IMG/VR virus record: IMGVR_UViG_2617270939_000002
Length of the DNA stretch: 34,039 bases
Direction: 5' to 3' (one strand)
DNA from: a virus
Lineage: Duplodnaviria; Heunggongvirae; Uroviricota; Caudoviricetes
In this document: one piece after another, positions 1 to 28,697 of the stretch
How the letters are laid out: every line of letters starts with the position of its first letter
How positions within the stretch are numbered: position 1 is the first letter of the stretch
The notes under the pieces: generated by a model
What the model was told of the DNA's origin: nothing
Seen by the model: the letters and a program-made list of their open reading frames with translations, nothing else
The model's database searches: none
Program-made: the position numbers and the translations under genes

Positions 1-333
1 TCAAAACTGCGCCAATGCCGCCTCAAGAGATATCGCAGCATCAGTGCTGTTGATAAAGTGCGTCACCCGCCTCATAACCTCAGCCTCTTCAGCTGCATCA
101 CCTTCGATCGCTTCGCCGTCATCCGTGATTAACGCTTTCCCCCTAAGCTTCGCAAACTGCGTCCGACCTCCGGACAGAATCAACAGCGCATCACCCTGCT
201 GTGGGCGCGTGACCGGGACGATGATCGCATAACCCGCCGACGTCTCGAGGATGCGACTGTCGGGAGTCATGCAGACACTGGCTGGCGTAACCCGCTGCTC
301 TATATAGTCGGTAGATGGTGAAGGAAAGCCCAT
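1..333 (-). CDS. Hypothetical phage protein, 5' part only (start ATG at 333, continues past window start)
   Basis: Open frame to position 1; ATG at 331-333 preceded by GAGGG Shine-Dalgarno; no family recognised. Confidence 0.35.
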   Translation of the reverse strand: MGFPSPSTDYIEQRVTPASVCMTPDSRILETSAGYAIIVPVTRPQQGDALLILSGGRTQFAKLRGKALITDDGEAIEGDAAEEAEVMRRVTHFINSTDAAISLEAALAQF

Positions 334-376
334 GTTTACGCCCTCTCTTGAATGCTGGATAAAAACACAGTATAAA

Positions 377-396
377 TACTGTATACCCATCCAGTA
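377..396 (+). promoter_or_regulatory. LexA-box-like (SOS box) operator upstream of DinI-like gene
   Basis: TACTGTATACCCATCCAGTA fits CTGT-N8-(A/C)CAG with the CCAG right half as I recall it from E. coli dinI; lies 16 nt upstream of the ATG and just before an AAGGAG RBS. Confidence 0.45.
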
Positions 397-411
397 AAGG
401 AGCAATGAGCA

Positions 412-654
412 ATGTTCGTGGAACTCGTTTATGACAAAAGGAATTTTGATGGTCTGCCCGGTGCAAAAGATATCATTCTGGGCGAGTTGACCAGGAGGGT
501 TCACCGGATCTTCCCGGATGCTGATGTCCGGGTTAAACCGATGATGACACTGCCGGCGATCAACACTGATGCCAGCAAGCATGAGAAAGAGCAGATAAGC
601 CGTACTGTTCAGGAAATGTTTGAAGAGGCTGATATGTGGCTGATTTCAGATTAA
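412..654 (+). CDS. DinI-like DNA-damage-inducible protein
   Basis: 80 aa; translation MFVELVYDK...FPDADVRVKPMMTL...EQISRTVQEMFEEADMWLISD resembles DinI family; RBS AAGGAG. Confidence 0.8.
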   Translation: MFVELVYDKRNFDGLPGAKDIILGELTRRVHRIFPDADVRVKPMMTLPAINTDASKHEKEQISRTVQEMFEEADMWLISD

Positions 655-788
655 ACGCCTTGAACCGTCATATTGCTTAAGTACAATCCGCCGTGACTGG
701 CAATCATTCAATACTCAAACTATCGAACGTTCGTCAGTCGGCCGCAATCATGCTCCTGCATACGGCGTGGTTGCGGCAACCATCATTT

Positions 789-2426
789 TTACTCCTGAGC
801 ATCCTGCTGATTTTGCTGACGCTTATATTCAGCTTTTTCGAACGCTTCACGTGTCTCTTCTTTCTTCTGGTTCCAGATACTGTCTTCAGACATTTCCACA
901 CGCACAGACACAAAAGAATCTGCCGGAATATCGATAGGATAACCGTTCTTGGTGGTTTCAGTGAAGGTGCCGTCATCATTTCTCACGCCAATTAGATTAC
1001 GCGCAAACTCAGGAGCGTCAGGGTGGGTGCGGTGATACGTCTTCACCAGCACAGAACCATCTGGGTTAACTTCATAATCCAGCCAAATGCGCGCCTGTTT
1101 ATTTTTATCCAGAGGGATTTCAAACCCGCCATCAATACCACCCCAGGCAGCGTCAGCATTAAGCCCGTTACAGCCAGATATAAGATAATTGCCCGCAGAA
1201 ATTCGGCTAACCTTACAGCCCTCGGATTCATCATTCATTTCAGCAGTGCCGTCAGCATAAATTTTCACCACTGGTGATGCGCGCTTAATAAAGCCATTGC
1301 TGTCAACGGTTGTATTGATGTCATCCCATAAGGTTCGGGCTGTCTTAATACCCTCACTCCCGCCGCCAAGTATCCTGACCGGAGATTCTGCATTAAAAGG
1401 AAGCGAGAGGATGGCTAAGGTGTCAACGGTTTGCAAAAACAACGACGGAGCGTAATTATATATACCCCAAGTTCCGGGAATATTTTTTTCACTCCGGAAG
1501 GGAACGAGTCCATATTCGCGTAAAGAATTCGCCAGATCCGTGACATTATTTATATTATTTACGCGAATTACACCATTTGGGCGACCAATTCCAAATCCAC
1601 CTACCCCCATGACATCTCCAGCATCCAGACCGACATTTTGGGTTGCGGCACTACCTAAACCTAATTTTGTTCGGGCGCCCGATGCTGTATTTGCTCCGGT
1701 TCCGCCGTCTGCGACAGTAACCGCACCGTTGCTCCCTTTCTGTGCCAGTTTACCGATGCCAGGGATGGTTACGGTGACGGTGATCGCGTTGCCGCTAACG
1801 GTGACCGTTGCTTTTGCCCCGTCTGAGGTTGCCACGCGGAACGAGGTATCTGAGGCGCTGGCAGGGTTAACCGTCACATTGAGCGTTGTGGTTGCGCCGA
1901 CGGCCACGCTTGCCGTGGCTTTGTCGAGAGTAACGCCGGTCACGGGGATATTCGGGGTACCGCTTTCTTCTGCCAGCTCCGGCTTGCCGGTATTGGTGAT
2001 TTTCGCTGTACGGGTAATGACCTCTTTTGCCGGAATGGCTTTACCCAGGCTGCTGCACCAGCCGCGGAAAACGTCGACGGTACCGTTCGGGTATTTGATT
2101 TTGTAATAGCGTACTGAGCCATCAATAAACCATGCGACCAGGTCTTTTTGCCCTTCTTCGCCCGGCTTCCAGGCGAGGGTAAACGAGGTATCGCCAGCAG
2201 ATTTTGCCCCCTGGGCCGTCGCGTTCCAGTCGGCATCCTCGTCGTCGAGGTAAGTGTCGTCATACGATTCGGCGGTCATTTCGCCCGGCGTCAGCTCTTT
2301 GATTTTCGCCAGGCGGTTCCAGTCGATATCAGAGAGTGGGTTAGCGAAAGCGTTGCCCGTTCCGGTGTAAAGCCAGAGCGTCGTACCGGCGCCTTTTACA
2401 GGAGCAAGTGGATTTGGTGTTGGCAT
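789..2426 (-). CDS. Phage major tail tube protein (lambda gpV-like) with Ig-like (Big_2) domain and a roughly 300 aa fibre-like C-terminal extension
   Basis: N-terminus [22 protein letters not shown]...VDVFRGW matches lambda V; C-terminal [18 protein letters not shown] motif typical of tail-fibre shafts. Confidence 0.8.
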
Positions 2427-2433
2427 GTTTTCC

Positions 2434-2832
2434 TCACATTTCGTAAGTGATTGAATATTTCATATCGGCGGAGGGCCACAGCCCCATCGCATCATCGCGC
2501 TGGTAATCGAAGCCTTGTGGAACCATGAGCGTTAACAGTGAATCGAGGCCGGGAACATCAGCGAGGGCCGGATAGATATGGCTTTCCATCCATTCATCCA
2601 GTTCGGAATCTGGTACCTGCGAGGACAGGAAGACCTCGATATGTAGCGTTGCCGCCCACATATCGGCATCAAGTTCTTCGCCGGTATACTCCGCATCGGT
2701 CAGATAGACCGCGACGGCAGGAAAATCCTCCTCCTCAATGACAGCCGGGCGCCCGTCAAAAAACATGACGTCGATCCCGATGGCCTCTTCAAGCACATCA
2801 ATAATTTTCTGGCGAATGAGAGTGTGTTTCAT
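2434..2832 (-). CDS. Phage minor tail protein U (lambda gpU-like)
   Basis: 132 aa; [16 protein letters not shown]...FFDGRPAV...[17 protein letters not shown]...IEVFL matches lambda gpU along its length. Confidence 0.9.
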
Positions 2833-2848
2833 CGTGTCAGATGCAACC

Positions 2849-3268
2849 TCAGTTGTTGCCTGAGGGCATATCCATATCCAGAAGAATGCCGTCTACACCC
2901 GGATCGCTGATTGCCTGCTGGAGGCGGGCGATGATGCCGTTGTACCCCGTCATCCCCGAATACGGCTGGAGTGAGCGGGTTTTACTGACCAGCGTCCCGG
3001 AAACAGGCAGCACCGCGATACCATCAGTAACCTGGTAGCTTCGCGCTGGTTTTGGGCCCATGTCCTCATCATCACCAAAGAGAGCCAGCGGTTCAGCCAT
3101 CTGCTCTGCACCTAGCGTCACGCCCGACACGGTGTCGGTCAGACGGGTGATACCTAACTGACCAGCGAGAGCACAAAAGAAAACCCGCGCATAGGCGGGT
3201 TCAAGTAAAAGCGGCTCATTGAAGGCCATACTGGCAATGTGCGGGAGATTACGCAGCTCTGGCGTCAT
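2849..3268 (-). pseudogene. Truncated S49-family prohead protease (lambda gpC N-terminal about 140 aa only)
   Basis: MTPELRNLPHIASMAFNEPLLLEPAYARVFFCALAGQLGI...YSGMTGYNGIIARLQQAISDPGVDGILLDMD matches gpC N-terminus; ORF stops long before expected length and abuts gpU. Confidence 0.75.
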
Positions 3269-3971
3269 CGGTCCCCTCCTCATTCGATTTTTTCAGTCCA
3301 GACTCAAAGGCCGAAGCCGCCCACGCTGGCGGTTTAAGTCCCGCTGCGCGACGCTCCATCGTTTCGCGAACCTGCTGGGCAAAGATTTCCTGATAATCTT
3401 CCCCCCGTTTGGCGCATTCCTTCTCATAGGTGCTCAGCCCAGCCTCAATGAGCATGACAGCCTCCTGCACCTCCTTCAGACCGTCAATGGCCATTCTCCC
3501 GGAGCCGATCCAGTCTGCATTTCCCCAGGCGCTTCTCGCCTCCTGAAAACTGAATCGGGCTTTAGACGGTAGTGTCACCACCCGGCGAACAATGGCCTCT
3601 TCCAGCCAGCATAAAAACATCTGACAGGCCTGGCGGGAGGCAACAAATTTGCGGCGCCCCATAAAGTACGCCCAGGACTCGTTAGCACTGGCGCGGGCGG
3701 TGGAATAACTCATCTGCGAATAGTTGCGAGAGAGTTGCTCATACGACACACCCAGCCCTGCAGCAATGTAGCGCACCTCCTTCCGTAATTTCTCATTCTC
3801 AATCGCCGCGTCGCGTGCGGAATACCATTCGATAGCCGCGGAAGATTCATAGAGGACCTCATTACCTTTTCCACCGCCACGTGCTACAGGCATTCCCTGA
3901 TCCTGCCAGTTCTGAATGGTTCGCACGCTGACCCCAAATATTTCAGAAAGACGCTTTTTGTTGACCTCCAT
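3249..3971 (-). pseudogene. In-frame fusion of terminase small subunit Nu1 N-terminus (about 66 aa) to portal protein gpB C-terminal region (deletion of terminase large subunit, W and most of B)
   Basis: MEVNKKRLSEIFGVSVRTIQNWQDQGMPVARGGGKGNEVLY is Nu1-like; downstream NYSQMSYSTARASANESWAYFMGRRKFVASRQ... is portal-like. Confidence 0.75.
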
Positions 3972-4148
3972 AGCTCACTCCATACACAAAAACAGAGAAA
4001 GGAAACGCCCTCTGGCTATTTAGCCGTTTTTAAGGCTTATCATTTCCTTTCTTTTCAGGGGGTGTTTACAGTTAAAACAATGAATTAGCGAGAAGAAGAA
4101 CGGAAACGGCAAATGCCTGAAAATTTTCATAAATAGCGAGAATCTGCG

Positions 4149-4160
4149 AGGTCGCCGCCC
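4149..4160 (-). other. Lambda-type cosN cohesive-end sequence (GGGCGGCGACCT on minus strand) with adjacent cosB-like sequence
   Basis: Reverse complement of 4149-4160 is GGGCGGCGACCT followed by TCGC...TCGCTATTTATGAAAATTTTC, about 180 bp upstream of Nu1 start as in lambda. Confidence 0.7.
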
Positions 4161-4218
4161 CGTAACAAGGCGGATCGCCGGAAAGGACCCGCAAACGATA
4201 ATAATTATCAATTGCATA

Positions 4219-4947
4219 CTATCGACGGCACTGCTGCCAGATAACACCACCGGGGAAACATTCCATCATGATGGCCGTGCGGACATAGGAAGCCAGTTCA
4301 TCCATCGCTTTCTTGTCTGCTGCCATTTGCTTTGTGACATCCAGCGCCGCACATTCAGCAGCGTTTTTCAGCGCGTTTTCGATCAACGTTTCAATGTTGG
4401 TATCAACACCAGGTTTAACTTTGAACTTATCGGCACTGACGGTTACCTTGTTCTGCGCTGGCTCATCACGCTGGATACCAAGGCTGATGTTGTAGATATT
4501 GGTCACCGGCTGAGGTGTTTCGATTGCCGCTGCGTGGATAGCACCATTTGCGATAGCGGCGTCCTTGATGAATGACACTCCATTGCGAATAAGTTCGAAG
4601 GAGACGGTGTCACGAATGCGCTGGTCCAGCTCGTCGATTGCCTTTTGTGCAGCAGAGGTATCAATCTCAACGCCAAGCGTCATCGAAGCGCAATATTGCT
4701 GCTCACCAAAACGCGTATTGACCAGGTGTTCAACGGCAAATTTCTGCCCTTCTGATGTCAGAAAGGTAAAGTGATTTTCTTTCTGGTATTCAGTTGCTGT
4801 GTGTCTGGTTTCAGCAAAACCAAGCTCGCGCAATTCGGCTGTGCCAGATTTAGAAGGCAGATCACCAGACAGCAACGCGCCACGGAAAAACAGCGCATAA
4901 AGCACTTCATTAGCAGCGCCAGATAGCGTAATGATTTTGTTACTCAT
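4219..4947 (-). CDS. Hypothetical phage protein (242 aa) between moron region and cos
   Basis: ATG at 4947 with AAGGA RBS; long ORF; no family recognised. Confidence 0.6.
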   Translation of the reverse strand: MSNKIITLSGAANEVLYALFFRGALLSGDLPSKSGTAELRELGFAETRHTATEYQKENHFTFLTSEGQKFAVEHLVNTRFGEQQYCASMTLGVEIDTSAAQKAIDELDQRIRDTVSFELIRNGVSFIKDAAIANGAIHAAAIETPQPVTNIYNISLGIQRDEPAQNKVTVSADKFKVKPGVDTNIETLIENALKNAAECAALDVTKQMAADKKAMDELASYVRTAIMMECFPGGVIWQQCRR

Positions 4948-5332
4948 GGAATATTTCCTTTTAGGCGTGAGCCTGTCGCACGGCAATGCCGCCCGAGAGG
5001 TAAACGCAACCTAACGGCATCACCCAGGCTCACTACTGAAAGACTCTCTTTGATGTGCGCGTGCGATGCGCGTAGAAGACTGATTTATCAACCTGTCTTT
5101 ATATCAGGATTCATTACCTGACTATTTGTGGGTAAAGTTCGTAGTGCGCTGATCGTGCAAAATGATTTTAGTTGGGAACAGTTCGCAACTCTGTCCCATA
5201 AAAATCAGCATATTCCCATCTATCCCATATCCAGCGCATTGACCATCGGGATACTGAAGGGAGATTCCATCATCTCTTAGAAAGATCACCATCTCTTTTG
5301 TTTCAATTTGCATATAGCTACCTGGAGGATTT

Positions 5333-5947
5333 ATGAATGCAAGGATTTTCATGGACTATTACCATGAGATTGATTTTCCATCTTTATTCGCGAGAGCAGT
5401 GGAAAGCGATGACGATGTGGGTACTACATTGCGCATTCACCTACTTTGTGAGCGCATGGTCGAAGCATGGATATGCGCATGCTGTGACTGCCAAGATCTC
5501 TTTGGAAGAGATAAAAACAAACTTTTAATCGAATGTAATACTAAAATATCCATGGCGGGAAACCTGGGAATCCCCCCGGAACTTATGAAATCACTTAAAA
5601 CCATCAACTCAATGCGTAATGACCTTGCACACAATCCATCAATACAAAGCATTGCTGATTCAAGGATCCAGAGCCTGAAGGATACTCTGACTGAATACTT
5701 TAAACAGCATCCAACGGAACCCAGCATGGAAGAATCAAAACTGGGTATTTTTAACGCCGAGAATCAATTAACCGAAGAAGTTTCCTTAGATAGTGACAGT
5801 TCAAAAAACAGACTTAAGTTAATCTTGCTGTTCAGCAAGTTAATGCAGGCGTTAATGCAATTAGTTGCAGCTAATCATAATGGGCGCTGGGATAACCAAT
5901 TTAGCCAATTCGTTTACCATGTGACCATGAACGCAACAAAGAGATAA
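5333..5947 (+). CDS. HEPN-like (Rx4H motif) protein, candidate abortive-infection/toxin RNase moron; alternative start at 5351
   Basis: Motif SMRNDLAHN (R-x4-H) in a predicted helical protein; opposite strand to surrounding phage genes; AT-rich; followed by hairpin terminators. Confidence 0.6.
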   Translation: MNARIFMDYYHEIDFPSLFARAVESDDDVGTTLRIHLLCERMVEAWICACCDCQDLFGRDKNKLLIECNTKISMAGNLGIPPELMKSLKTINSMRNDLAHNPSIQSIADSRIQSLKDTLTEYFKQHPTEPSMEESKLGIFNAENQLTEEVSLDSDSSKNRLKLILLFSKLMQALMQLVAANHNGRWDNQFSQFVYHVTMNATKR

Positions 5948-5983
5948 ATCCAAGCCCGTTTTGTACGGGCTGTTGCATTATCA

Positions 5984-6014
5984 CAGGCACTCAGTGAATG
6001 CCTGCTGTAATGCC
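5984..6014. repeat. 31-bp direct repeat copy 1 (contains hairpin CAGGCA-N9-TGCCTG)
   Basis: caggcactcagtgaatgcctgctgtaatgcc; second copy at 6371-6401 with one mismatch. Confidence 0.6.
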
Positions 6015-6030
6015 CGTCGTGATGACCATT

Positions 6031-6092
6031 AAAAAAGCCACTCGAAAGTGGCCTTTGTGATGGCAATAAAAAACCGCCCGTAGGCGGTTATA
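6031..6092. terminator. Two tandem hairpins flanked by A/T runs (bidirectional rho-independent terminators)
   Basis: gccact-cgaa-agtggc (6037-6052) and ccgcc-cgta-ggcgg (6074-6087), each with A-run upstream and T-rich downstream. Confidence 0.5.
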
Positions 6093-6108
6093 TTCAGCAG
6101 GTCGCATG

Positions 6109-6273
6109 TTATCTGTGAATGACAAACAGCGATTTACATTTAGGGCAAAGTAACGCCTGTTGTTGGCGTACTTTCGTGGTCGAGTGTGTGGATTTATGTC
6201 CGCATATCGGGCACATGACAGTCGTATTGGCTGCAAGCCCAACACGCTGCATTGCATAATCGAAAAATGACAT
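6109..6273 (-). CDS. Small zinc-ribbon protein (54 aa, two CxxC pairs)
   Basis: Own translation MSFFDYAMQRVGLAANTTVMCPICGHKSTHSTTKVRQQQALLCPKCKSLFVIHR; ATG at 6273; terminators immediately downstream; below the 60 aa ORF-track cutoff. Confidence 0.45.
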   Translation of the reverse strand: MSFFDYAMQRVGLAANTTVMCPICGHKSTHSTTKVRQQQALLCPKCKSLFVIHR

Positions 6274-6370
6274 GGTGGTTAACCTTTCAATGAATGGGGC
6301 TTATTATACCATGCATAGCTCAATTATTAATCAATCATCATCGCATGCTTGATGCCATTTAACTTTGTCG

Positions 6371-6401
6371 CAGGCACTCAGTGAATGTCTGCTGTAATGC
6401 C
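6371..6401. repeat. 31-bp direct repeat copy 2
   Basis: caggcactcagtgaatgtctgctgtaatgcc. Confidence 0.6.
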
Positions 6402-6714
6402 TGCTCAGCCAAGTTGAAGCACACCGTGTTCTTTTGAATCAGAGAATGCAACAAACCCAGTGTATTCGGGGATAGTGTTCCGTCATCAGCATCAAATGCT
6501 GAAATGGTTGCGTGAAGAATCAAAAATGCTCCAAATCCCGCGCCGCTGCTGCCCCTCGATGGTCAGAATCGTCAAGGAGGACCCGTTAAAAGGTAAGCAG
6601 AAAATCTGTGGTTAGAAGTGAAGGCTTTGACAACGTTCTAAATTTTATGACAGAAATAAAAAAGCATTACCTTTCAAGATAATGCTTTTTCACTCGAACT
6701 GAGTCTTATAACAA

Positions 6715-6888
6715 TTAGATTAATGTGATTTTAATATCATAGCTTTCAAGCCCAGTCATTTTTTCACGAGCATTAAACTGGATATCGGAAACTTCTTTTC
6801 CTGTCTTTTTTTTGAGTTCAATAATTTTTTTTGTGATGAATTCAGAAATATCCGCTTCAGTTTTTCTTTTTAAATCTTCGACGTTCAT
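6715..6888 (-). CDS. GnsA/GnsB-family small protein (57 aa)
   Basis: Own translation MNVEDLKRKTEADISEFITKKIIELKKKTGKEVSDIQFNAREKMTGLESYDIKITLI closely resembles E. coli GnsA/GnsB; RBS GAGAGGT. Confidence 0.8.
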   Translation of the reverse strand: MNVEDLKRKTEADISEFITKKIIELKKKTGKEVSDIQFNAREKMTGLESYDIKITLI

Positions 6889-7092
6889 TGTTTACCTCTC
6901 TTGATCTCTAACGTATCAACGCCAGGCATGTTACATTCCCCGTAGAGCACTTGTATAAGCGCTGATATGTTTAAAAGATAGAATAGAAAGACTCAATTAT
7001 CAATAGTTTGCAGTACAATCTTCATGCAAAAGAGCTCGCGACCACACAAACCACTGTACTAAAATCCGGGTCGGTCACGAAACAACCAGATC

Positions 7093-7323
7093 TCATTTCA
7101 AAAGCTTCGAGGCTGCCTCGAGGATCTCTTCTGAACTGACATCACGATCAGAGGCTACATAAACTATTTTATGGTCTCCTGTCAGAGATGGAAATCCCGC
7201 TGACATCACGGGTAGGTGTGCTTTTTCCCCATTGGGAAACTCACGCATTATCGTAGTAATACCTTTCATTACGGTTACAACAACTGCTGGTTCTGCATTA
7301 AAAAAAACGATGACTTTTTTCAT
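7093..7323 (-). CDS. Hypothetical small protein (76 aa)
   Basis: ORF with MKK start; weak RBS; no family recognised. Confidence 0.4.
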   Translation of the reverse strand: MKKVIVFFNAEPAVVVTVMKGITTIMREFPNGEKAHLPVMSAGFPSLTGDHKIVYVASDRDVSSEEILEAASKLLK

Positions 7324-7396
7324 AATTTTACCGTGATGTCTCTTACAGAGATTGTCGGTTCAGCATACAAAAAAGGCTCCATAAGGAGCCTGAAAT

Positions 7397-7612
7397 TTAT
7401 TTTCTGAATTCTAACGAAGACTGACCAGAACGAATGTACAGTGCAATATTATCAAATGTAATCATTGTTGATTTGCAAAAAATACATTTTGCTCCGAAAG
7501 GATTTTTTTCAGTAACATCAAAGTTTGACGTTCGGTACTGAGATCCGTGGCAACACGGACATCTGAAGTGAATATTATTAGTAATAACAGTTACCTTATA
7601 CAGCCACGACAT
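7397..7612 (-). CDS. Hypothetical zinc-ribbon-like small protein (71 aa; CPCC...CIFC)
   Basis: ATG at 7612; two Cys pairs about 22 residues apart; overlaps 3' end of csp gene by 17 nt; weak RBS. Confidence 0.3.
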
Positions 7613-7808
7613 TAACTGCCGTGGGGCCTTTAGGTCCCTGTTCAACACTAAATTCAACTTCCTGATTCTCATTCAACGTCTTGAAATCATTACTCTGGAT
7701 AGCAGAGAAGTGAACAAACACATCTTTACTACCATCTTTTGGAGTGATAAAACCAAAACCTTTTTCAGGATTAAACCATTTAACTAAACCAGTCATTTTA
7801 TTAGACAT
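7596..7808 (-). CDS. Cold-shock protein, CspA family (CspB-like)
   Basis: [53 protein letters not shown]... ; long AT-rich upstream leader typical of csp genes. Confidence 0.9.
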
Positions 7809-8240
7809 AAACATTACCTTTATTGAGTAAGCCCTTGGGCAGAATGGTCCGAAAAAAAATTATCAGAGAGAAAAGCTAACAAGGAAATCTCAACAGGAAC
7901 AAGGAATAAAATTATTACAGCGACTGCTTCAGATAAATTCGTTACAAACCAGACATTCATTAACGCATGATTAACCAGACATAGCAAGGTTTAGTTTTGT
8001 AAGTAAATCTCAGTGGGTTTTGATCTTAAAAATTAATTTAAATAGCTTAAATCGAAAATTATGTCATGCTGCGTAAGACCTTTATCTATCACCCTAAGTT
8101 GTCAGGGATTTTGACTCAAGGAAGAGTCGTATTTCCTTCATAGTAAAAATTCACAAATTTATCCACGAAAACCGTCAACATCTTAATTTATAGAGCTATT
8201 ATTTTTCCTCTACGGTTCATTGTTAGTATTTTTACGGACT

Positions 8241-8345
8241 CATAAATCCGCTCACATGTCATTCCTGCTCGGTAGTTTTCATCAGCGCGTTCAGCATGGT
8301 ATCGAGCTTCTTCTGCCAGGCTTCCTGGCATGTCTACGAGCATTG
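8241..8345 (-). pseudogene. Orphan 3' fragment duplicated from the gene at 9196..9669 (about 105 bp, about 80 percent identical to 9237..9341)
   Basis: Direct sequence comparison of the two stretches (ctcaca(t/c)gtcattcctgc...atcgagcttcttctgc...). Confidence 0.55.
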
Positions 8346-8380
8346 TGGTGTCATGGCGGATGGAAAGTTATGTTGATTCG

Positions 8381-8584
8381 TTAGTTATCGAGCTGTAGAA
8401 CGCTATGCTCTAGCGACTCGGAATAGGCAATCAGCCCGGTGTACTCAGGGATAACCTCGCCATCATCCGCTTCGAACTCAGGGATTGTTCCGGTAGTGAT
8501 GGTATATTGTGGCTGGCCATCTTCTTTTGCGAAGGCAGCCAGGTCTTCAATCTGCTTAGCTGTAAGAACTACTGTAATGCTCAT
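8381..8584 (-). CDS. Hypothetical acidic small protein (67 aa)
   Basis: ORF only; SD very close to ATG. Confidence 0.35.
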   Translation of the reverse strand: MSITVVLTAKQIEDLAAFAKEDGQPQYTITTGTIPEFEADDGEVIPEYTGLIAYSESLEHSVLQLDN

Positions 8585-8968
8585 TCCTCAGTTGTTAAAA
8601 AGCCCCGCTATTGCGAGGCTTGATTGATTATGGCTAACGACTACATCGTAACGGTTATAAAAGAAGCTATTAGCCAACATGTGGTGTATGGTTGTTAACC
8701 GCCCACCAGGACAATCAACATGTCGATACTCAAAGATATCAAGATGCGTACTTTACGCCATGTGAAAAGTACTTGTCCTCATTGCTCCCGCCAGTCAAAG
8801 CACAGTCTGTCGAGAATAAAAAACAATATAACGTTAATTTGCCCCTTCTGTGGAAACATCTATCTTCCATCGGAAAGCAAACCAATAAAGTAACTGATTG
8901 ACTACCAAATAAAACTCATACTCTCAGAATGTGGCAAAGCAGACATAACCTTTTATTGTTGTTCTCAT

Positions 8969-9199
8969 TTAAGAGAATGTAACACCCAGAGTGGAGAGGT
9001 TTTTTTTCTTCTCCACAATACGGCGATCAAGTTCAGCCACTGCATGCGGGCGTATGGCATCAAGAAAGGCGTTATCCTGATAGGTAGACTGGATTGTCAC
9101 ACCAAGTCCGGCACCACTTTCCAGTATGCTTTTCTGAAGTTGTAGTTCTTTTATATCGTTATTGAGGTAATACGCTTCACTTAGGTTTTCTGCGTTCAT
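8969..9199 (-). CDS. Hypothetical phage protein (76 aa)
   Basis: ATGA start/stop overlap with upstream gene suggests translational coupling. Confidence 0.5.
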
Positions 9200-9669
9200 C
9201 TTCTAACCCTGTTGTTGTTTGACTGCCTCACTGAGTCGTAAATGCGCTCACACGTCATTCCTGCCCGGTAGCTTTCGTCAGATCGCTCAGCATAATATCG
9301 AGCTTCTTCTGCAAGGCGTCCGAGCATGTCGGCGAGCACTGCGGCGTCGGCTCCGGCTGTTTTGCTTCTGACGGCAGTGGCAAGATCTGCGGTGTGCTTT
9401 GCGGCGTCCAGGCGAGTGGCAAGCTTTGTTGCTTCGGTACGCAGCTGGTTAACAGTGGCAGACAGGCCAGCAGCAGTGGCAGCGGATTTACCGACAATAA
9501 TTGCCCAGTCACTCAGGCTTAACCCTGCAATTCTGTCGGCCAACATCCAGGACACCTCTTTTGCTGTTTTAGCTGTTTCGGCATATGCCTTCGCTGATAC
9601 ACCGCAGCCGGTCAGCGTGGTTCCTGTTCCATATGAAAGTCTGCTGTAAATGGTGCTCATTCTGGTCAT
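9196..9669 (-). CDS. Hypothetical phage protein (157 aa)
   Basis: ATG at 9669 preceded by GGAGGTGAGG; Ala/Thr-rich helical protein. Confidence 0.6.
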
Positions 9670-9912
9670 AGCCTCACCTCCGATTATTCGGATGGCGCTG
9701 TGTGTTTGAAAAGGGTCAGGCTTCACGGGCTGGATTTATCAACAAAGCACGTAGCGGATGATTCCCGTGAGCCTGAAATAGAAAAGGCCACGCAAATGCG
9801 CAGCCTGTAACCAGAAATCAATATTGTCTTTACATCAATTTTTCTTAAGGTTAAATTCTTCTGACAAGTTGATGAAAGACAACTTGAATATTAGCTATTT
9901 GTTCTCTGTTAT

Positions 9913-11737: not shown

Positions 11738-12367
11738 TCACACCAGCACAGACTTCGCCAGGTTAAACAGCGCGCGGCGTTTATCCAGCCCGTTACGTCC
11801 GCCATTGATAAGCAGCGTGACGCGCTCCACATCGCCTGAATGGAGCAGGCATCCGTGCGAGACGTAGAACCATGCGGCGGAGCGCGCAGCGTATTCATCT
11901 CGTTCCAGTAGTTCTGGATACGAAACCAGATCCAGTTTGAGAGCCTGGCCGCAACTGCGATAGTTGCTAAGCCCGGTGATTTGCTTAAGGCCTCGGCCGC
12001 GATATTTCCAGCCATCACCAGCAACCTGGTTGCCCAGGTTCTTTTTGCCCCACTCACCGCCGTAAACCAGATTGGCTATCGCTTTCTGATTTGCCGGTTG
12101 CGTTGCCGTTCTGCCGAGTGCGGCGGCCTGCTGCGCAGTAATGCGATGCTTGCCGAACGTAGGTACCAGGTTTTCTGCCGCATAGTTCAGGTTTTCCACC
12201 AGCCGGGTGAAACCGCCGGACTCATGGCCCATCTGCGCGATAAACATGGCCTGATCGAGCGGCGCGGTTATGCCGAATTCCTTCACTGCAGCATCGATAT
12301 GCGAAAACCAGCGCGAAGCGAGCCCGGCGCTAATGCCAGCCGCCTTTTGAAATTGTGATTGGTTCAC
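11738..12367 (-). CDS. Phage endolysin, glycoside hydrolase family 19 (chitinase-like lysozyme); GTG start (alternative ATG at 12415)
   Basis: MFIAQMGHESGGFTRLVENLNYAAE...GRGLKQITGLSNY motifs; GTGA overlap with upstream gene stop. Confidence 0.8.
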   Translation of the reverse strand: MNQSQFQKAAGISAGLASRWFSHIDAAVKEFGITAPLDQAMFIAQMGHESGGFTRLVENLNYAAENLVPTFGKHRITAQQAAALGRTATQPANQKAIANLVYGGEWGKKNLGNQVAGDGWKYRGRGLKQITGLSNYRSCGQALKLDLVSYPELLERDEYAARSAAWFYVSHGCLLHSGDVERVTLLINGGRNGLDKRRALFNLAKSVLV

Positions 12368-12645
12368 GTTGTGCTTTCCCCTGCTATTCTTGCGATGTTG
12401 CCACGTGCTCGCCATACAGCTATGCAGACAACAAGGTTGACGACCAACTCTCCGTAGTCGACCTGCACGTAATCACCATGCCAGATGCGGAAAGCGGTAA
12501 ACGCTGGAGCGAGGATCAGCCCATAGGCCAGAAACTCCATCAGACGGCGGCGCCGTAAGCTCCGCTTCCTGAAGAACATCAGGCGTATGGTGATGAGGAT
12601 GCATGCAACAGCGTTAATGTTCAGGATCAGTGTTTGCCACGTCAT
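12364..12645 (-). CDS. Small two-TM membrane protein in lysis cassette (holin partner/antiholin candidate)
   Basis: Hydrophobic segments plus RKRSLRRRR basic patch; ATGA coupling to the upstream holin-like gene. Confidence 0.5.
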   Translation of the reverse strand: MTWQTLILNINAVACILITIRLMFFRKRSLRRRRLMEFLAYGLILAPAFTAFRIWHGDYVQVDYGELVVNLVVCIAVWRARGNIARIAGESTT

Positions 12646-13046
12646 TCTTCCCCCTTCAATCCGGGTAAGTCTCCTGTCTTCGACCGTTTGAGGATGCGAG
12701 CCAGGATGGTGACAGAAACCGATGAAGCCAGCAGGGCACCCATAGCTGGAGATACCTTCACGGAAACTGGAGGAGAAAGGTGACTTAATGCCGCATTGAT
12801 TAGCGCAGCGATGATTTCAGATGCTGTTCCGGCGCAGTAGACTCCACCAATGAATGAGATGAGCGCGAACAGTATCTGCTTCCAGATTTTGTGGTCTTCA
12901 CTGCTCAGGACATAAAGAGCAGCCCCGGCAAGTGAGCAAAGCATTACAGCGGGTGTCGCTTCTGGAAACATCGTCGCGAAGGTGATTCCGGTAGTGCCGG
13001 CGGCCACGCCTGCCGTTACCGTTGCAGATATCGGTTCTGCGGACAT
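12642..13046 (-). CDS. Putative holin (134 aa, multi-TM with charged C-terminal tail)
   Basis: ATG at 13046 with GAGGGGG RBS; TM-rich with C-terminal KRSKTGDLPGLKGEE; first large gene of lysis cassette. Confidence 0.55.
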   Translation of the reverse strand: MSAEPISATVTAGVAAGTTGITFATMFPEATPAVMLCSLAGAALYVLSSEDHKIWKQILFALISFIGGVYCAGTASEIIAALINAALSHLSPPVSVKVSPAMGALLASSVSVTILARILKRSKTGDLPGLKGEE

Positions 13047-13156
13047 TTTGCCCCCTCTTATTGCTGTTGATCCTCTCAGAAGGTTGAGGGGAAACAAAAA
13101 AGGCCACCGTGAGGTGGCCTATATATGATTGAAATTTTTGATTTGGTAAGGCTTGA

Positions 13157-13932: not shown

Positions 13933-14030
13933 ACGTCTATTGTAGTCTAGTGAGAATTGCTGAGAACTACGAGTTATGGCACCCTGAATGGGACCCACGA
14001 AGATGGGTCCTAAAATCGAGGGTCCCAAAC

Positions 14031-15260
14031 ATGGCCAAAATCGCTAAGAAGCTCACTGACACTGAAATCAAAAGCACCAAACCTGCCGAAAAAGAGGTTA
14101 ACCTTTTTGACGGCGATGGTTTGCTGTTGCGAATCGCTCCCCTGGCGAAGGGAGGGAAGAAAAATTGGTATTTCAGATATGCAGTGCCTGTGACCAAAAA
14201 GCGAACTAAGGTGAGCTTAGGAACCTATCCTCACCTTACACTTGCGAAGGCACGAGCTTTACGTGATGAATACTTGTCGTTGCTTACAAATGGTATAGAC
14301 CCCCAAGTTCATAACAACCAAAAAGCCAATGCACTGAAAGATGCCACGGAACATACATTTCAAGCAGTAGCCAAGAAGTGGCTTGATGAGAAAGTCAAAA
14401 CGTCAGGCATCTCCCAAGATCATGCTAACGACATCTGGCGAAGCCTAGAGAGAAATATCTTTTCCACATTGGGTGATACCCCAATTAAGGAGATTCGCCC
14501 TAAAATGCTTAAACAGCATTTAGAACCCATAGAAAAACGAGGTGTCCTTGAAACACTTCGCCGCATCATATCCCGCCTGAATGAAATTTTCCGCTATGCA
14601 GCAACAGAAGAACTCATAGAATTCAACCCGGCAGACAACCTGGGGCAACGGTTCAGCAAGCCAAAAAAACAGAATATGCCAGCATTACCCCCTTCCGAAC
14701 TCCCTCGCTTCTTGGTTGCTCTAAACAATGCTTCTATCCGTTTGGAAACAAGGCTACTGATTGAGTGGCAACTTCTCACATGGGTTCGCCCAGGTGAAGC
14801 TGTTCGCACAAGATGGTCAGATATTGATATTGAAACTGGCATGTGGAACATCCCGGCGGAGTTTATGAAAATGAAGAAGCCTCACAAAGTTCCACTGAGC
14901 AAAGAAGCTTTGCGAGTTTTGGATTTAATGAAAGTCATCAGCGGGCATAGAGAGTGGGTGTTCCCCAGTATCAAAGCTCCACTCAATCACATGCATGAAC
15001 AAACAGCTAATGCGGCCATAATCCGTATGGGTTTCGGAGGTGAGCTTGTAGCTCACGGTATGCGATCCATTGCTAGAACGGCTGCTGAGGAGTCTGGCAA
15101 GTTTAGGACTGATGTCTTAGAAGCCGCCCTTGCCCACTCGAAGAAAGATGAAATAATTGCAGCCTACAATCGTGCAGAGTATCTCACTGAACGGGTGGTT
15201 CTCATGCAATGGTGGAGTGACTATGTTTCGTCTCAAAAATGCAAAGTTATTGCCGCATAA
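14031..15260 (+). CDS. Tyrosine integrase, P4 family (IntA-like), 409 aa
   Basis: MAKIAKKLTDTEIKSTKPAEKEVNLFDGDGLLL...WYFRY... N-terminus and C-terminal HGMRS...LAHS...Y catalytic region; adjacent to ssrA-type att. Confidence 0.9.
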   Translation: MAKIAKKLTDTEIKSTKPAEKEVNLFDGDGLLLRIAPLAKGGKKNWYFRYAVPVTKKRTKVSLGTYPHLTLAKARALRDEYLSLLTNGIDPQVHNNQKANALKDATEHTFQAVAKKWLDEKVKTSGISQDHANDIWRSLERNIFSTLGDTPIKEIRPKMLKQHLEPIEKRGVLETLRRIISRLNEIFRYAATEELIEFNPADNLGQRFSKPKKQNMPALPPSELPRFLVALNNASIRLETRLLIEWQLLTWVRPGEAVRTRWSDIDIETGMWNIPAEFMKMKKPHKVPLSKEALRVLDLMKVISGHREWVFPSIKAPLNHMHEQTANAAIIRMGFGGELVAHGMRSIARTAAEESGKFRTDVLEAALAHSKKDEIIAAYNRAEYLTERVVLMQWWSDYVSSQKCKVIAA

Positions 15261-15542: not shown

Positions 15543-17099
15543 ATGGCTAGCGAAAATGACAAAAATCATAGAGTTAGGGTCGCGCAGTACTTGAGGATGT
15601 CTACCGACCATCAGCAATATTCTTTACATAATCAGTCCGAATATATCAAAGATTATGCTGAAAAGAACAATATGGAAATCGCTTATACCTACGATGATGC
15701 AGGTAAGAGCGGAGTCAGTATCGTAGGCAGGCATTCTTTGCAGCAGTTACTTAGCGATGTAGAACAAAAGAAAATAGATATACAGGCTGTATTATTTTAT
15801 GATGTGAGCCGTTTTGGTCGTTTTCAAAATAGTGATGAAGCGGCATATTATTCCTTTCTATTTGAGAGAAATGGTGTAGATCTTATATATTGTTCCGAAC
15901 CTATACCCACTAAAGATTTCCCTTTAGAGTCCTCTGTTATACTGAATATAAAAAGATCTAGTGCTGCATATCACAGCAGGAATTTATCTGAAAAGGTATT
16001 TATAGGGCAAGTAAATTTAATAAAGCTTGGTTATCATCAAGGCGGTATGGCTGGTTATGGGCTGAGACGTCTTTTAGTAGACGAAAATGGCATAGCTAAA
16101 GAAATATTGAGTTTCCGCAAAAGAAAGAGTATTCAAACAGATAGGGTAATATTAATTCCGGGACCAAAAAATGAAATAAAAATTGTAAATAGAATATATG
16201 ATCTCTTTATAGATAATAACGTCCCAGAATTCATTATTGCTGAGAGATTAAATGAACAGAACATACCTGCAGAAAATGGAACATTATGGACTCGTGCAAA
16301 AATACATCAAATTTTGACAAATGAAAAATATATTGGAAACAACATATATAACAAAACCTCATCTAAATTAAAAAGTAGGCTTGTAAAAAACCCCAAACAT
16401 GAATGGGTTAGATGTGACAAGGCATATAAACCTATTATTTCAAAGAAAAAATACAATAAAGCTCAAGAAATAATTCAGCTCCGATCCATTCATTTGACTA
16501 ATGAAGATCTATTAGAAAAACTAAAACAAAAATTAGAATCTAATGGAAAACTATCAGGCTTTATCATTGATGAAGATGATACAGGCCCTTCATCTTCTGT
16601 TTATAGAACCCGATTTGGTGGTCTTTTAAGAGCATATACTTTGATTGGTTATAAGCCAGAACATGATTACAGCTATCTCAAAATAAATGAAGCACTAAGA
16701 TCATTTCACTCAGAGATAATTGAGGATTTTAAGGGTGAAATTTTAAAAAGTAACTGTCATATAGACGAGTATAAATATGCCCCAATGCTTTACATCAATG
16801 ATGAGTTTTTAATTTCCGTCCTTGTTACTAAATGCATACATATGAAATCAGGTAAACTTAGATGGAAAGTCCGGTTTGATAACTCACAGAAAGCAGACAT
16901 AACAATTGTTATACGAATGAATTCACAAAATATTTCACCTCTTGATTTTTATATCATACCAAAGATTGAAAACGAATATAATAAAATGTGCATGACGGAA
17001 ACAAACAACATTCGATTAGATCTCTATAGATTTGATAATCTTGATAAACTTCTACAAATTATTACTCGCATGAAAGTGAGGGAACTATATGCTGCCTGA
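15543..17099 (+). CDS. Large serine recombinase (resolvase/invertase catalytic domain plus recombinase and zinc-ribbon domains)
   Basis: VAQYLRMSTDHQ catalytic serine motif near N-terminus; 518 aa; AT-rich. Confidence 0.85.
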   Translation: MASENDKNHRVRVAQYLRMSTDHQQYSLHNQSEYIKDYAEKNNMEIAYTYDDAGKSGVSIVGRHSLQQLLSDVEQKKIDIQAVLFYDVSRFGRFQNSDEAAYYSFLFERNGVDLIYCSEPIPTKDFPLESSVILNIKRSSAAYHSRNLSEKVFIGQVNLIKLGYHQGGMAGYGLRRLLVDENGIAKEILSFRKRKSIQTDRVILIPGPKNEIKIVNRIYDLFIDNNVPEFIIAERLNEQNIPAENGTLWTRAKIHQILTNEKYIGNNIYNKTSSKLKSRLVKNPKHEWVRCDKAYKPIISKKKYNKAQEIIQLRSIHLTNEDLLEKLKQKLESNGKLSGFIIDEDDTGPSSSVYRTRFGGLLRAYTLIGYKPEHDYSYLKINEALRSFHSEIIEDFKGEILKSNCHIDEYKYAPMLYINDEFLISVLVTKCIHMKSGKLRWKVRFDNSQKADITIVIRMNSQNISPLDFYIIPKIENEYNKMCMTETNNIRLDLYRFDNLDKLLQIITRMKVRELYAA

Positions 17100-20612: not shown

Positions 20613-22739
20613 TCATCTAACTGACTCAATGATCTTTTGTTCTATAACTCGCCCACCTTGCTTTCCAGACAAAGGACCAATTAGTACTTTAAAGTCGGCA
20701 TAGTCATCTGCCTCAGGCCTATGCTCTATAATAACAATTGCATTGAATAATTTAGATTTTTGATATATAAAATTCAGCACCTTCGAAGCCGTCTCAGAAT
20801 CAAGTCCAGCGACAGGTTCATCAATAAACAATATTTTGTTTGTTTTTCTGGACTTAGATAGTATTTCACATAATTTTATTCTACGCATTTCACCACCTGA
20901 CAGGGACTGCGTTTTTCTATTAAGTTTCAAATGTGATATTCCAAGATAATGGATAGTTTCAAGAATAGTATTAATCTTAGTGTTATTAAAAAAAGAGCTT
21001 AACTCTTTCAACTCAGTATCATATACATCTATTATATTCATACCATTAATCTGAGACTTTACTTCATCTATATTGTGGTCAAACAGTTTACCCTCACATT
21101 TATGACATGATATGTAGATATCCTTTTCAAAACCCCTTTCATATTTTATCACGCCCTTACCTTCACAAACTTTACATCCACCAAGTTTGTTTGGAAGGAA
21201 ATACTCTATATCTAATTTTGTTATATCGGAGAAAAATTCTGCAATTAATTTATTCAAATCCGTGATAGTTGCGACAGTAGAACGTCCTGTATATGATGAC
21301 AATTTTTGGCTTATATAAATCGAATCGGTAAGACTACAAATAGCTTTAGCTAAAGATGATTTCCCCGATCCGGAGATTCCAGAAAAAACAGTAACACACT
21401 CTTTAGGGATACGTATATTTTGATTAATGATGTTATTTTTATTAAGCCCTTCAAAATAATAGTAATCAGATATATTATTTTTGGGATTGAGGTTCCTTTG
21501 CGGCTGAATTTTTTCTTTTTCACAAATTTCCCCACCAGAAGAACCAGCGTATTTACCAACATGGATTTGCTGATCAGCAAGATCTATGAAATACTGCGAG
21601 TGCTCTACTAAAATAACTGTGTTTTTTTCTGATAATTTTTTTAGCTTTTGAAAGATAACTTCAAAATCGACAGGGTTAATTTGGGATGATATTTCATCGA
21701 TAACAATCAGAATACCTGTTGTATTAGATGTTAAAAGCCTGCTGAAAATAAGTTTTTGTATTTCCCCCCCAGAAAGACTGGGAATTGAACGAGACAAATT
21801 TAAATATCCCAATCCCATATTATTTATTGAGGACAACACTCTAATTAATACTGAGTCACCTATAGTTTTTTTCAGGGTATTACATAATTCAGATATAGGA
21901 GATAGTAAAAATTCATCAAATGTAAATCCTAAAACATCAAGTTGGGCTGTTTCTTGGTTAATTCTGCTTCCATTACAAAATGAGCAATTTTCTTCCTTTT
22001 TATACTTTGAATTGTTTTGGCTCCGTCCTATATTCGAATTAGCAAAAGACATTACGCCTTTATAAAAAGCTCTTCTTTGCTTCGTTTTTCCTTTGTGTTT
22101 AAATCTAAAAGATAATTTCTCAGCGCTTTCTCCATATAGTATTAGGTTTTTCTTTTCAAGTGATAGTGAATCAAAAGTATCATCTACTTTTATATTATTT
22201 TTATCACAATAGACCATAAGTAATTGGTGATAATAATCAGATAACTCACCAGTCCGCCAACATAAAAATGGTTTTTGATCTAGTCTACATTTTTCATTAA
22301 TTAATTCAGATTCATCCACACTAACTATCTCGCCAAGGCCTAAGCAGTGTGGACATTCATTTCTATAATTGTTTATTTTTAATTTATCATAATTAGGTAC
22401 TGCTACGTTTCTTTTGATTTTTAAAGATGACAAAGCTTGAGCTATATTCAGATATGAATATATAGTTGAACGAGGGTTGTTATTTGTGTTTCTTTGTGGT
22501 ATCGCAACAGCGGGAATTAACCCACTGAAATTTGCAACTTTATAATCACTTTCATTCAAATAACCGTTTTCTACAGCATCAAACTCATCTTTGCATAATT
22601 GATAAATTGATGAAAATGCTAAAGAACTTTTTCCTGCGCCCGAACGGCCATAAATAGCGGTTATTGTATTAAATGGTATAGTAACATCTAAATTTTTTAA
22701 ATTATGGGTGGCTATTCCCTCAAAAATGATCTTATTCAT
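20613..22739 (-). CDS. UvrA-like double-ABC ATPase with zinc-finger insertions (708 aa)
   Basis: Two Walker A motifs (GRSGAGKSS, GISGSGKSS), two ABC signatures (LSGGEIQKL, LSGGEMRRI), several CxxC pairs; AGAGGA RBS; ATG overlaps upstream stop as ATGAATAA. Confidence 0.85.
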   Translation of the reverse strand: MNKIIFEGIATHNLKNLDVTIPFNTITAIYGRSGAGKSSLAFSSIYQLCKDEFDAVENGYLNESDYKVANFSGLIPAVAIPQRNTNNNPRSTIYSYLNIAQALSSLKIKRNVAVPNYDKLKINNYRNECPHCLGLGEIVSVDESELINEKCRLDQKPFLCWRTGELSDYYHQLLMVYCDKNNIKVDDTFDSLSLEKKNLILYGESAEKLSFRFKHKGKTKQRRAFYKGVMSFANSNIGRSQNNSKYKKEENCSFCNGSRINQETAQLDVLGFTFDEFLLSPISELCNTLKKTIGDSVLIRVLSSINNMGLGYLNLSRSIPSLSGGEIQKLIFSRLLTSNTTGILIVIDEISSQINPVDFEVIFQKLKKLSEKNTVILVEHSQYFIDLADQQIHVGKYAGSSGGEICEKEKIQPQRNLNPKNNISDYYYFEGLNKNNIINQNIRIPKECVTVFSGISGSGKSSLAKAICSLTDSIYISQKLSSYTGRSTVATITDLNKLIAEFFSDITKLDIEYFLPNKLGGCKVCEGKGVIKYERGFEKDIYISCHKCEGKLFDHNIDEVKSQINGMNIIDVYDTELKELSSFFNNTKINTILETIHYLGISHLKLNRKTQSLSGGEMRRIKLCEILSKSRKTNKILFIDEPVAGLDSETASKVLNFIYQKSKLFNAIVIIEHRPEADDYADFKVLIGPLSGKQGGRVIEQKIIESVR

Positions 22740-23814
22740 ACTTTCCTCTACACCAATCACATTCAGGATCACGTGGAACATCTTGGACGTTAAAAGATAA
22801 ACTTCTAAGACTAAATTCGACTCTTTTATTTTCTTGTTGCAAGTGATCTACTTTCCCGGCAAGTAATTTTATAGCGTCCAAGCTTGCAAGGCTTGCAGCC
22901 AGACCTGATAGTGGTGAAAATGAACCTAATTTTCGTTTTACCCGGTGCAATTTCTTCACATTAACAAGGTCTTTGCTATTTATTTTTCCTAAAAATAGGT
23001 TAAAACAATTAAAGCATGCTGACTTAAATGGAATAATTGTCTGACCGATAAGGGTTTGATGAAGATTATATCCCCCGCCAACTATATGTGGGATATTATG
23101 AATCATACTAAAGAGGGCGATTATTTTACTGGTGTAATCCACATTAGGTTCATCAGCGCAGTTTATTATCAAATCTATATCAGAGGGTAGAATATTTCTT
23201 TTAAAAAAATCATCATCGATAATGTCATTGATAATGTCAATCTTAATATCTGGAGATATCTTTTTCAAAGAGTTGAGTAACGCTATATTTTTATCAGAGT
23301 TAATTTCATCCTCGAAATAAAACTGACGATGTAAATTACTTATATCTACATTATCGTGATCTACAAATATTATCGAACCAACATTGCAATGAGCAAGATA
23401 CGTTGCCACATTACTACCGACTGCTCCAATACCTACAATCATTACTTTTGATTTTTTAAGATTAATTATACATTCTAAAACCTCACTGGTGGTATGACAG
23501 TAGTCTTCAAATGTATTGATCATTCTATATTGTTCAGTGACAAGCTCTGCAGGGTATTGGCAATCTTGATCGATAATTATATTGTTTTCATTCAAAAACA
23601 AAGCTAATTTTTCAAGTTGTTGAATATCGATTCCTGAATAATTTGCTACAATTTCTTGAAGAGAAGTTTGCCCATCAAACATCTTTAAGAGTTCAACTAT
23701 ATTTGGAAAGTTGATTTTTATTTTTATACTTTCTCTAATATTGGATTTAAAAAACTCTACAGTATCATCATTTACGACGATACCAATACTTTGTCGCAGT
23801 CTAAAATTATTCAT
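22732..23814 (-). CDS. E1-like adenylyltransferase (ThiF/MoeB/MccB family) with PqqD-like N-terminal peptide-binding domain, paralog B (alternative GTG start at 23832)
   Basis: KVMIVGIGAVGSNVATYLAHCNVGSIIFVDHDNVDISNLHRQ nucleotide-binding motif; N-terminal LLKMFDGQTSLQEIV; C-terminal CFNC...CDWC. Confidence 0.8.
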   Translation of the reverse strand: MNNFRLRQSIGIVVNDDTVEFFKSNIRESIKIKINFPNIVELLKMFDGQTSLQEIVANYSGIDIQQLEKLALFLNENNIIIDQDCQYPAELVTEQYRMINTFEDYCHTTSEVLECIINLKKSKVMIVGIGAVGSNVATYLAHCNVGSIIFVDHDNVDISNLHRQFYFEDEINSDKNIALLNSLKKISPDIKIDIINDIIDDDFFKRNILPSDIDLIINCADEPNVDYTSKIIALFSMIHNIPHIVGGGYNLHQTLIGQTIIPFKSACFNCFNLFLGKINSKDLVNVKKLHRVKRKLGSFSPLSGLAASLASLDAIKLLAGKVDHLQQENKRVEFSLRSLSFNVQDVPRDPECDWCRGKYE

Positions 23815-28307: not shown

Positions 28308-28697
28308 ATGAATAATGACATAACAAGACTATCAAGGCGTGGAAAATTCCATACTGACAAACTTCCGCCTGATGAAAGACGAAGCCACTGCGTCAGTGTC
28401 AGATTAAATGAAGAAGAATTAACTATTCTCGACAGTAAAAGAGGCCAGTATAAAAAAGGGGAATGGTTGAGAATGGCTTCCCTGAACAAACTCCCACCGG
28501 TTCTGCCCGAAATAAATCGCGAAGCATGGATTAAACTCGGCAGCCTTTCCCAGGATTTAAATTACCTACTGAATCATCTTGACAAGAAAAGTCCTGACAG
28601 CGAACTAACCCGTACAGAACTCTTTGCCCTGCGCAGACAAATCAAAACGCTTCGGGATCACCTTATTCCCTCAACATTTCTGGAGCAAGACCGATGA
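28308..28697 (+). CDS. MobC-like relaxosome accessory protein (ribbon-helix-helix)
   Basis: RRSHCVSVRLNEEELTILDSKRGQYKKGEWLR pattern; ATGA coupling to relaxase. Confidence 0.65.
   Translation: MNNDITRLSRRGKFHTDKLPPDERRSHCVSVRLNEEELTILDSKRGQYKKGEWLRMASLNKLPPVLPEINREAWIKLGSLSQDLNYLLNHLDKKSPDSELTRTELFALRRQIKTLRDHLIPSTFLEQDR

Follow-up and report, generated by a model that had tools for sequence, protein, structure and literature searches.

A tail tube–tail fibre fusion gene in a phi80-like Escherichia coli prophage as a relic of microhomology-mediated deletion

The 545-codon open reading frame (ORF) at positions 789 to 2426 (minus strand) of a 34,039-nt viral record (IMG/VR IMGVR_UViG_2617270939_000002; the whole stretch is called the window below) joins most of a phage tail tube gene, V, to the distal part of a tail fibre gene. 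This ORF is almost certainly the chimeric relic of one microhomology deletion in a phi80-like E. coli prophage. In the scenario that we favor, a phi80-like lambdoid prophage integrated beside smpB would have undergone one illegitimate, microhomology-mediated deletion of about 11.8 kb, running from V nt 655 to fibre nt 368. The deletion would have kept the reading frame by chance, and the ORF of the relic would simply not have decayed yet. RecA-independent illegitimate recombination or replication slippage could account for such an event, and a single-step deletion is more parsimonious than stepwise loss. Prophage decay by deletion is well established, notably from the cryptic prophages of E. 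coli K-12. To our knowledge, this particular junction has not been described before; it is an ordinary deletion scar, and what is new is one undescribed instance of a known phenomenon. Its interest is that of a clean, base-resolved example of lambdoid prophage decay.

Domain organization of the chimeric ORF

The 545-codon ORF was confirmed, with an ATG start. It begins 7 nt past the stop codon of the upstream gene and retains a native ribosome-binding site (GAGGA) located 5 nt 5' of the ATG. Its product is identical to KDX36574.1 and WP_283235265.1 of E. coli, annotated at NCBI as “phage tail protein” (P0122 in our protein set).

The lambda-type tail tube domain (PF16461) is complete: it covers residues 18 to 152 (window 1971-2375, minus strand) and profile positions 1 to 135 of 135, with an E value of 4e−67 in Pfam. 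It is followed by a Big_2 Ig-like domain at residues 161 to 223 (from window position 1946 down to the junction, minus strand), truncated in that only profile positions 1 to 60 of 79 are matched. The C-terminal part carries a complete PF25670 domain, “Phage tail protein C-terminal domain” (residues 371 to 513; window 888-1316, minus strand; profile positions 1 to 132 of 133; E value of 2e−56). PHROGs profiles divided the protein in a similar manner, with residues 1 to 226 assigned to the major tail protein family phrog_41 and residues 163 to 544 to the tail fibre family phrog_1591, the latter at profile positions 114 to 478 of 484. The 18-residue Gly/Thr-rich segment corresponds to residues 241 to 258, and the V part is richer in G+C (57%) than the fibre part (48%). 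In the PDB, the V half matched 9MFE, 6P3E (E value of 8e−92), 2K4Q, and 2L04.

The earlier note on this DNA, made from the sequence alone, had described a tube protein with an extension of roughly 300 residues, the first 230 residues or so being collinear with lambda gpV including its Ig-like domain. The ORF is real, the extension is of the fibre type, and the tube domain is complete; the extension comprises 327 residues, the V part is 218 residues long, and the Ig-like domain is cut. The domain search proposed in that note for the C-terminal part found the PF25670/phrog_1591 fibre. Structure prediction, also proposed there, gave an AlphaFold2 model of residues 219 to 545 that was too poor to be used in a fold search (mean pLDDT of 49, pTM of 0.34); it was built from a shallow alignment of 26 sequences, as a monomer model of a trimeric fibre.

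Parent genes of the two halves

The parents of both halves could be identified. The fusion protein was searched by tblastn against 50,697 phage records, 416 of which matched. The major tail protein V (247 aa) of phages Flotzy (XNS37972.1) and LLS was 100% identical to residues 1 to 218, those of mEp043 and mEp213 were 99% identical, and that of phi80 (gene 13) was 95% identical; every one of these matches ended at residue 218. In the same records, residues 200 to 545 showed 45% identity to the “tail fiber” of HK140. The ORF DNA matched 38 of 5,426 complete E. coli genomes, never past ORF nt 655, and the 80-nt stretch directly after this position matched annotated tail fibre genes in 27 of these genomes. 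The V gene of the CX21 prophage is likewise 96.3% identical at the DNA level up to nt 655 and unrelated beyond it. Between the V part and the Flotzy V gene there are 26 synonymous and no nonsynonymous differences. Apart from lacking its last 29 residues (of 247), this half is a regular phi80-type V.

The closest relatives of the other half are 449-aa proteins whose only Pfam domain is PF25670 (P0002 to P0005), with 95 to 96% identity over residues 200 to 545 of the query (its last 63%). Residues 123 to 449 of P0002 to P0004 are identical to residues 219 to 545 of the chimera at 326 of 327 positions. The sole difference is P513S, and the ancestral proline is kept in P0121, the commonest allele of the fusion. 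The gene encoding P0005 lies in a normal tail module (locus L003), where H-M-L-K-I-J and three small ORFs precede the fibre gene. Relative to this intact fibre gene, the fibre part differs at 6 nt of 981 (1 synonymous and 5 nonsynonymous). When these differences were polarized with P0002 to P0004, four of the five amino acid changes belonged to the L003 lineage, and only P513S was derived in the window. We had considered the substitution pattern as a test of relaxed constraint and dropped it, since one derived change is too few events.

Comparison with the fibre genes of intact relatives showed collinearity from fibre residue 123 to residue 449. The N-terminal 122 residues (MLYNTGTIAINGNTATGTG...), conserved in the fibres of CX21, Flotzy, MEI4O1-23, and L003, are missing here; they presumably form the tail-attachment region. 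The fibre parent is no homologue of lambda Stf; it is of the PF25670/phrog_1591 type, which in phi80-like phages takes the stf position, behind J and cor. This refines the side-tail-fibre gene named as a possible fusion partner in the earlier note.

The deletion junction and the lost interval

The junction was mapped by three-way DNA alignments of the window with the V gene of the CX21 prophage and the L003 fibre gene. V ...ATCACCGTCACCG meets fibre TAACCATCCCT... in frame and without filler DNA. Across the junction, the V parent reads ...GCGATCACCGTCACCG and continues past the breakpoint with GCGTG, the fibre parent reads ...GGGACCACCG and continues with TAACCATCCCT, and the window reads ...GCGATCACCGTCACCGTAACCATCCCT. 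Both parents share the 5-nt microhomology CACCG (V nt 651 to 655 and fibre nt 363 to 367), which lies at window positions 1772 to 1776 (minus strand), and the switch between them is base precise. The V-derived part (window 1772-2426, minus strand) thus consists of V nt 1 to 655, that is, residues 1 to 218 plus the first base of codon 219. The fibre-derived part (window 789-1771, minus strand) consists of fibre nt 368 to 1350, encoding residues 123 to 449 of the 449-aa fibre, and the stop codon. The reading frame accordingly passes from V codons 1 to 218, through a hybrid codon 219, to fibre codons 124 to 449. A microhomology of at least 5 nt is expected at a random junction about 0.3% of the time (~0.003). 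These alignments demonstrate an origin by deletion at microhomology.

The intact prophage of CX21 has 11,814 bp between the two breakpoints. The interval lost relative to CX21 comprises the last 89 nt of V; the genes G, T, H (tape measure), M, L, K, I, and J; and, at its distal end, two small ORFs, cor, and the first 367 nt (122 codons) of the fibre gene. The same gene order is found in L003, in E. coli MEI4O1-23 (locus L004), and in phage Flotzy. We found no further similarity anywhere in the window to the interval of the MEI4O1-23 locus (4.6 to 15.8 kb) that holds the deleted tail genes.

Both flanks of the scar are native. On the V side, the neighbor upstream is the intact tail terminator gene U (window 2434-2832, minus strand; 132 aa; profile positions 1 to 130 of 130 of Phage_tail_U), collinear with the MEI4O1-23 locus. 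On the other side, J and cor are deleted upstream of the fibre remnant, and the genes downstream of it are native: a DinI-family gene (Pfam DinI; window 412-654, plus strand), in the position that it has after the fibre gene in intact relatives, and next to it a UmuD-like gene (phrog_3469; window 1-582, minus strand). The order fibre-DinI-UmuD is that of Flotzy and MEI4O1-23. The two possibilities raised in the earlier note had been a deletion fusing V to the distal part of a fibre gene and a natural decorated tube protein. The first of these is borne out by the intact parents, the base-precise junction, the 11.8 kb that separate its two sides in relatives, and two further deletions in the same operon.

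Rearrangement by a DNA invertase was considered as another route to the fusion and rejected: the junction lies in the N-terminal third of the fibre gene, the two genes are on the same strand 11.8 kb apart, and there is no invertase gene downstream. In CX21 (locus L001, 27103-30655), fibre C-terminal cassettes in the opposite orientation and a recombinase gene come after the fibre gene. A Gin-type tail-fibre shufflon has been described in an Enterobacter prophage (PMC13418256). The CX21 cassettes resemble this shufflon, whereas the fibre remnant of the window has neither cassettes nor an invertase.

Further deletions in the same late operon

The locus of E. coli MEI4O1-23, 99.8% identical in the flanking segments, served as the reference for further deletions. 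About 1.3 kb upstream of the chimeric ORF, a second in-frame fusion of 240 aa (window 3249-3971, minus strand) joins the N terminus of Nu1 to the C terminus of the portal protein (Pfam Phage_Nu1 and positions 311 to 354 of 354 of Phage_portal_2). Its junction, at 3774-3775, shows a CA microhomology. It leads from about Nu1 codon 65 into the portal gene, of which the C-terminal 175 codons remain, and about 3.5 kb is gone (the remainder of Nu1, all of A and W, and the larger part of B).

The third deletion lies between these two fusions. Here, an N-terminal fragment of the head protease gene C (~138 codons; phrog_53 positions 2 to 125 of 583) is joined to the last 43 nt of Z (window 2849-3283, minus strand). 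The junction at about 2869-2871 shows a TA microhomology and is out of frame, leaving a 144-codon ORF; about 3.7 kb is missing, beginning near codon 138 of C and reaching to within 43 nt of the end of Z. Together, the three deletions took out head and tail genes amounting to about 19 kb, leaving an element incapable of particle formation.

Distribution of the fusion

In the protein database, the fused protein forms one 90% cluster of 18 distinct sequences. The allele P0121, one residue away from the window protein, was found on at least 145 contigs, which reach 5.2 Mb in length, and is listed in 254 blocks of the index. All the 36 carrier contigs that we read (24 plus 12) were from E. coli and carried the same series: the Nu1-portal fusion, the C fragment, U, the V-fibre fusion, and DinI. 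A hemerythrin-like gene, a second DinI gene, and smpB lie downstream of the scar in these contigs, and all of them lack G, T, H, M, L, K, I, J, and the head genes. Because the same decayed context stands next to smpB in every contig read, the relic must be inherited vertically within one E. coli lineage. Fused alleles are 0 to 3 residues apart, and this near-identity may reflect a young clonal lineage. An exact search with 35 nt of the junction in one genome per species gave no match, the species-representative genome of E. coli being free of the scar. In one assembly (GCA_037022425.1; locus L014, 3001-4639), an additional A in an A-run at ORF nt 734 splits the gene into ORFs of 258 and 273 aa, either by real pseudogenization or by a homopolymer sequencing error. 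The scar offers a convenient lineage marker for its E. coli clone.

A misjoining of V and the fibre gene by an assembler could in principle produce the same ORF, since the parents share a short similar patch at the junction (T-V-T codons). However, the 5-nt overlap is too short to mislead an assembler, and the identical junction was recovered in eight independent assemblies made with different runs and pipelines (SRR27242129, SRR15376354, GCA_049823745.1, SRR1186798, ERR11807273, DRR063305, ERR10505196, and GCA_037022425.1). The protein also occurs on the long contigs mentioned above. Such an artefact is excluded for practical purposes, because the ORF shows only 0 to 2 nt differences at seven loci that come from different sequencing runs, and we hold it to be extremely improbable.

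The chimera might alternatively be a natural decorated tube protein, that is, a working member of a class of V proteins with a fibre-like C-terminal appendage. Tube proteins with C-terminal decoration domains do exist: lambda gpV carries an Ig-like domain (as in 2L04, matched here), and SPP1 gp17.1* has an FN3 extension. The fusion resembles them in that an additional module follows the tube domain on its C-terminal side, and its ORF is intact and in frame. In those proteins, however, the modules are whole domains in intact phages, whereas in the chimera a piece of a different structural gene makes up the module, and the phage is dead: the Ig-like domain stops midway (profile position 60 of 79), the extension starts mid-fibre (profile position 114 of 484), and the carrier contigs lack the tail and head genes listed above. 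Moreover, none of the 416 matching phage records and none of the 5,426 complete E. coli genomes covered at least 80% of the query with the V-plus-fibre architecture. In a phmmer search against 1.84 billion cluster representatives, the best-scoring match of each of the top 150 lay within query residues 1 to 243 or 166 to 545, and none of these representatives had both halves. One match that looked collinear (P0150) proved to be a PF25670-only fibre and not a fusion. With a fibre as its C-terminal part and the fused architecture absent from the matching phage records, the decorated-tube alternative of the earlier note falls away, and we give it next to no credence.

Two other proteins of the database do join a V tube domain to parts of downstream tail genes. 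One (P0154, 373 aa) continues into the C-terminal receptor-binding domain of J, and the other (P0163, 370 aa) into a partial JAB domain and the NlpC/P60 domain of K. These are probably independent deletion scars of a like kind; with V-J and V-K fusions in the database, fusions of V to downstream tail genes thus seem to recur in decaying prophages. Such recurrent pseudoarchitectures can contaminate surveys of domain architecture in phage tail proteins. For the V-fibre protein, the database labels “phage tail protein” and “bacterial Ig-like domain family protein” carry the risk that a relic is mistaken for a new tube architecture, and the protein merits a flag as a chimeric relic.

Possible function of the chimeric product

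We infer that the chimeric product plays no role in tail building and is functionless, because the tape measure, the tip/tube initiator, and the chaperones have been lost, V has only part of its Ig-like domain, and the fibre is without its N terminus. Counting against an inert relic, the ORF is intact and in frame, has a native ribosome-binding site, and varies hardly at all among many isolates.

On another reading, which we consider very unlikely, the chimera arose by deletion and its in-frame product is expressed and kept because it helps the host. One variant of it, for which we see equally slim chances, is that the protein is made upon SOS induction or by read-through and acts as a dominant-negative tube subunit or decoy against superinfecting phi80-like phages. 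A polymerizable V domain carrying a bulky trimerizing fibre might poison tube assembly; alternatively, the gene might serve as a reservoir of fibre-tip alleles for recombination with incoming phages. On the decoy reading, a dead prophage scar would have been co-opted as an antiphage factor, and its in-frame state would be selected rather than accidental. In favor of a benefit to the host, a complete tube domain and a complete distal fibre domain are retained together with the native ribosome-binding site, and many isolates still have the scar. Of the three deletions in the operon, two are in frame, yet by our own calculation this would happen by chance about 26% of the time.

Several observations speak against such a benefit. 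The ORF is split by a frameshift in at least one assembly. The differences among the fused alleles that we read, in DNA or protein, are all amino acid changes, and a young clone explains the near-identity of these alleles better than selection does. A nonexhaustive search recognized neither a late promoter nor a Q antiterminator gene in the window, including the stretch between the lysis genes and the neighboring island. The V-J and V-K scars show how readily fusions of this type originate. A promoter and terminator scan of positions 500 to 6200 gave 5 promoter-like sites, versus 6.1 ± 2.6 in shuffled sequences, and is uninformative on expression. A relic that has kept its ORF by chance remains our preferred reading.

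Comparison with known systems

The N-terminal part of the chimera shares with phi80- and lambda-like V proteins (lambda gpV, PDB 6P3E, 2K4Q, and 2L04) the complete tube domain and the U gene upstream. It differs from them by the absence of the last 29 residues, the cut Ig-like domain, and the 327 foreign residues, and the gene is not followed by G, T, and H or any tail module. With the phi80-like tail fibres (the 449-aa P0002 to P0005, Flotzy XNS37985.1, and HK140), the other part shares the GGTGA...ARTxLGLG motif, the complete C-terminal domain, and the native DinI and UmuD-like neighbors downstream. Unlike them, it lacks the N-terminal 122 residues and is not preceded by J or cor. As in the deletion fusions of defective lambdoid prophages, there are microhomology junctions, lost morphogenesis genes, and several deletions per operon; the most direct analogues are the Nu1-portal fusion of the window and the V-J (P0154) and V-K (P0163) proteins.

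The sole PDB relative of the fibre half is SU10 gp12, a long-tail-fibre proximal protein (7Z47, chain D), matched with an E value of 3e−91 over gp12 residues 517 to 784, its C-terminal third. Only residues 1 to 90 of gp12 were built in 7Z47 (PMC9509320), so there is no experimental structure for the fibre domain. We therefore rejected 7Z47_D as a solved structure of the fibre part, the homologous region of gp12 not being modeled (PMC9509320).

Other features of the window

Small cargo genes (YnfU-like, GnsA/B toxin, YmcF, and CspG) occupy positions ~6000 to 9730 and are flanked by two DUF2514 (spanin-like) lysis gene remnants. A 119-nt repeat is present at 8234-8352 and 9230-9348, with about 81% identity between the copies. 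A second lysis cassette, with a GH19 endolysin (11738-12415) and a holin (12642-13097), follows this cargo.

The window also contains a mobilizable island with an integrase (13950-15260), a serine recombinase (15543-17099), two ParB genes, and a relaxase (28694-29953). Inside it, a three-gene cluster of low G+C content (about 32%; 20613-24931, minus strand) encodes a UvrA-like double ABC ATPase (722 aa; PADLOC mad3, 3e−44) and two paralogous ThiF/E1-like proteins of 366 and 374 aa. An island of E. coli E423, otherwise 92% identical, encodes NACHT and RelA/SpoT proteins in its central part instead of this cluster, which is why the center of the island looks like a variable cargo region, possibly for defense genes. 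A 181-aa ORF at 25611-26156 (plus strand) matches positions 156 to 329 of 331 of a type II restriction endonuclease model (E value of 5e−102) and is probably a truncated restriction endonuclease gene, of which only the C-terminal half is left. An IS3-family transposase pair (HTH_Tnp_1, then rve) lies at 32805-34039 (plus strand) and runs off the end of the window.
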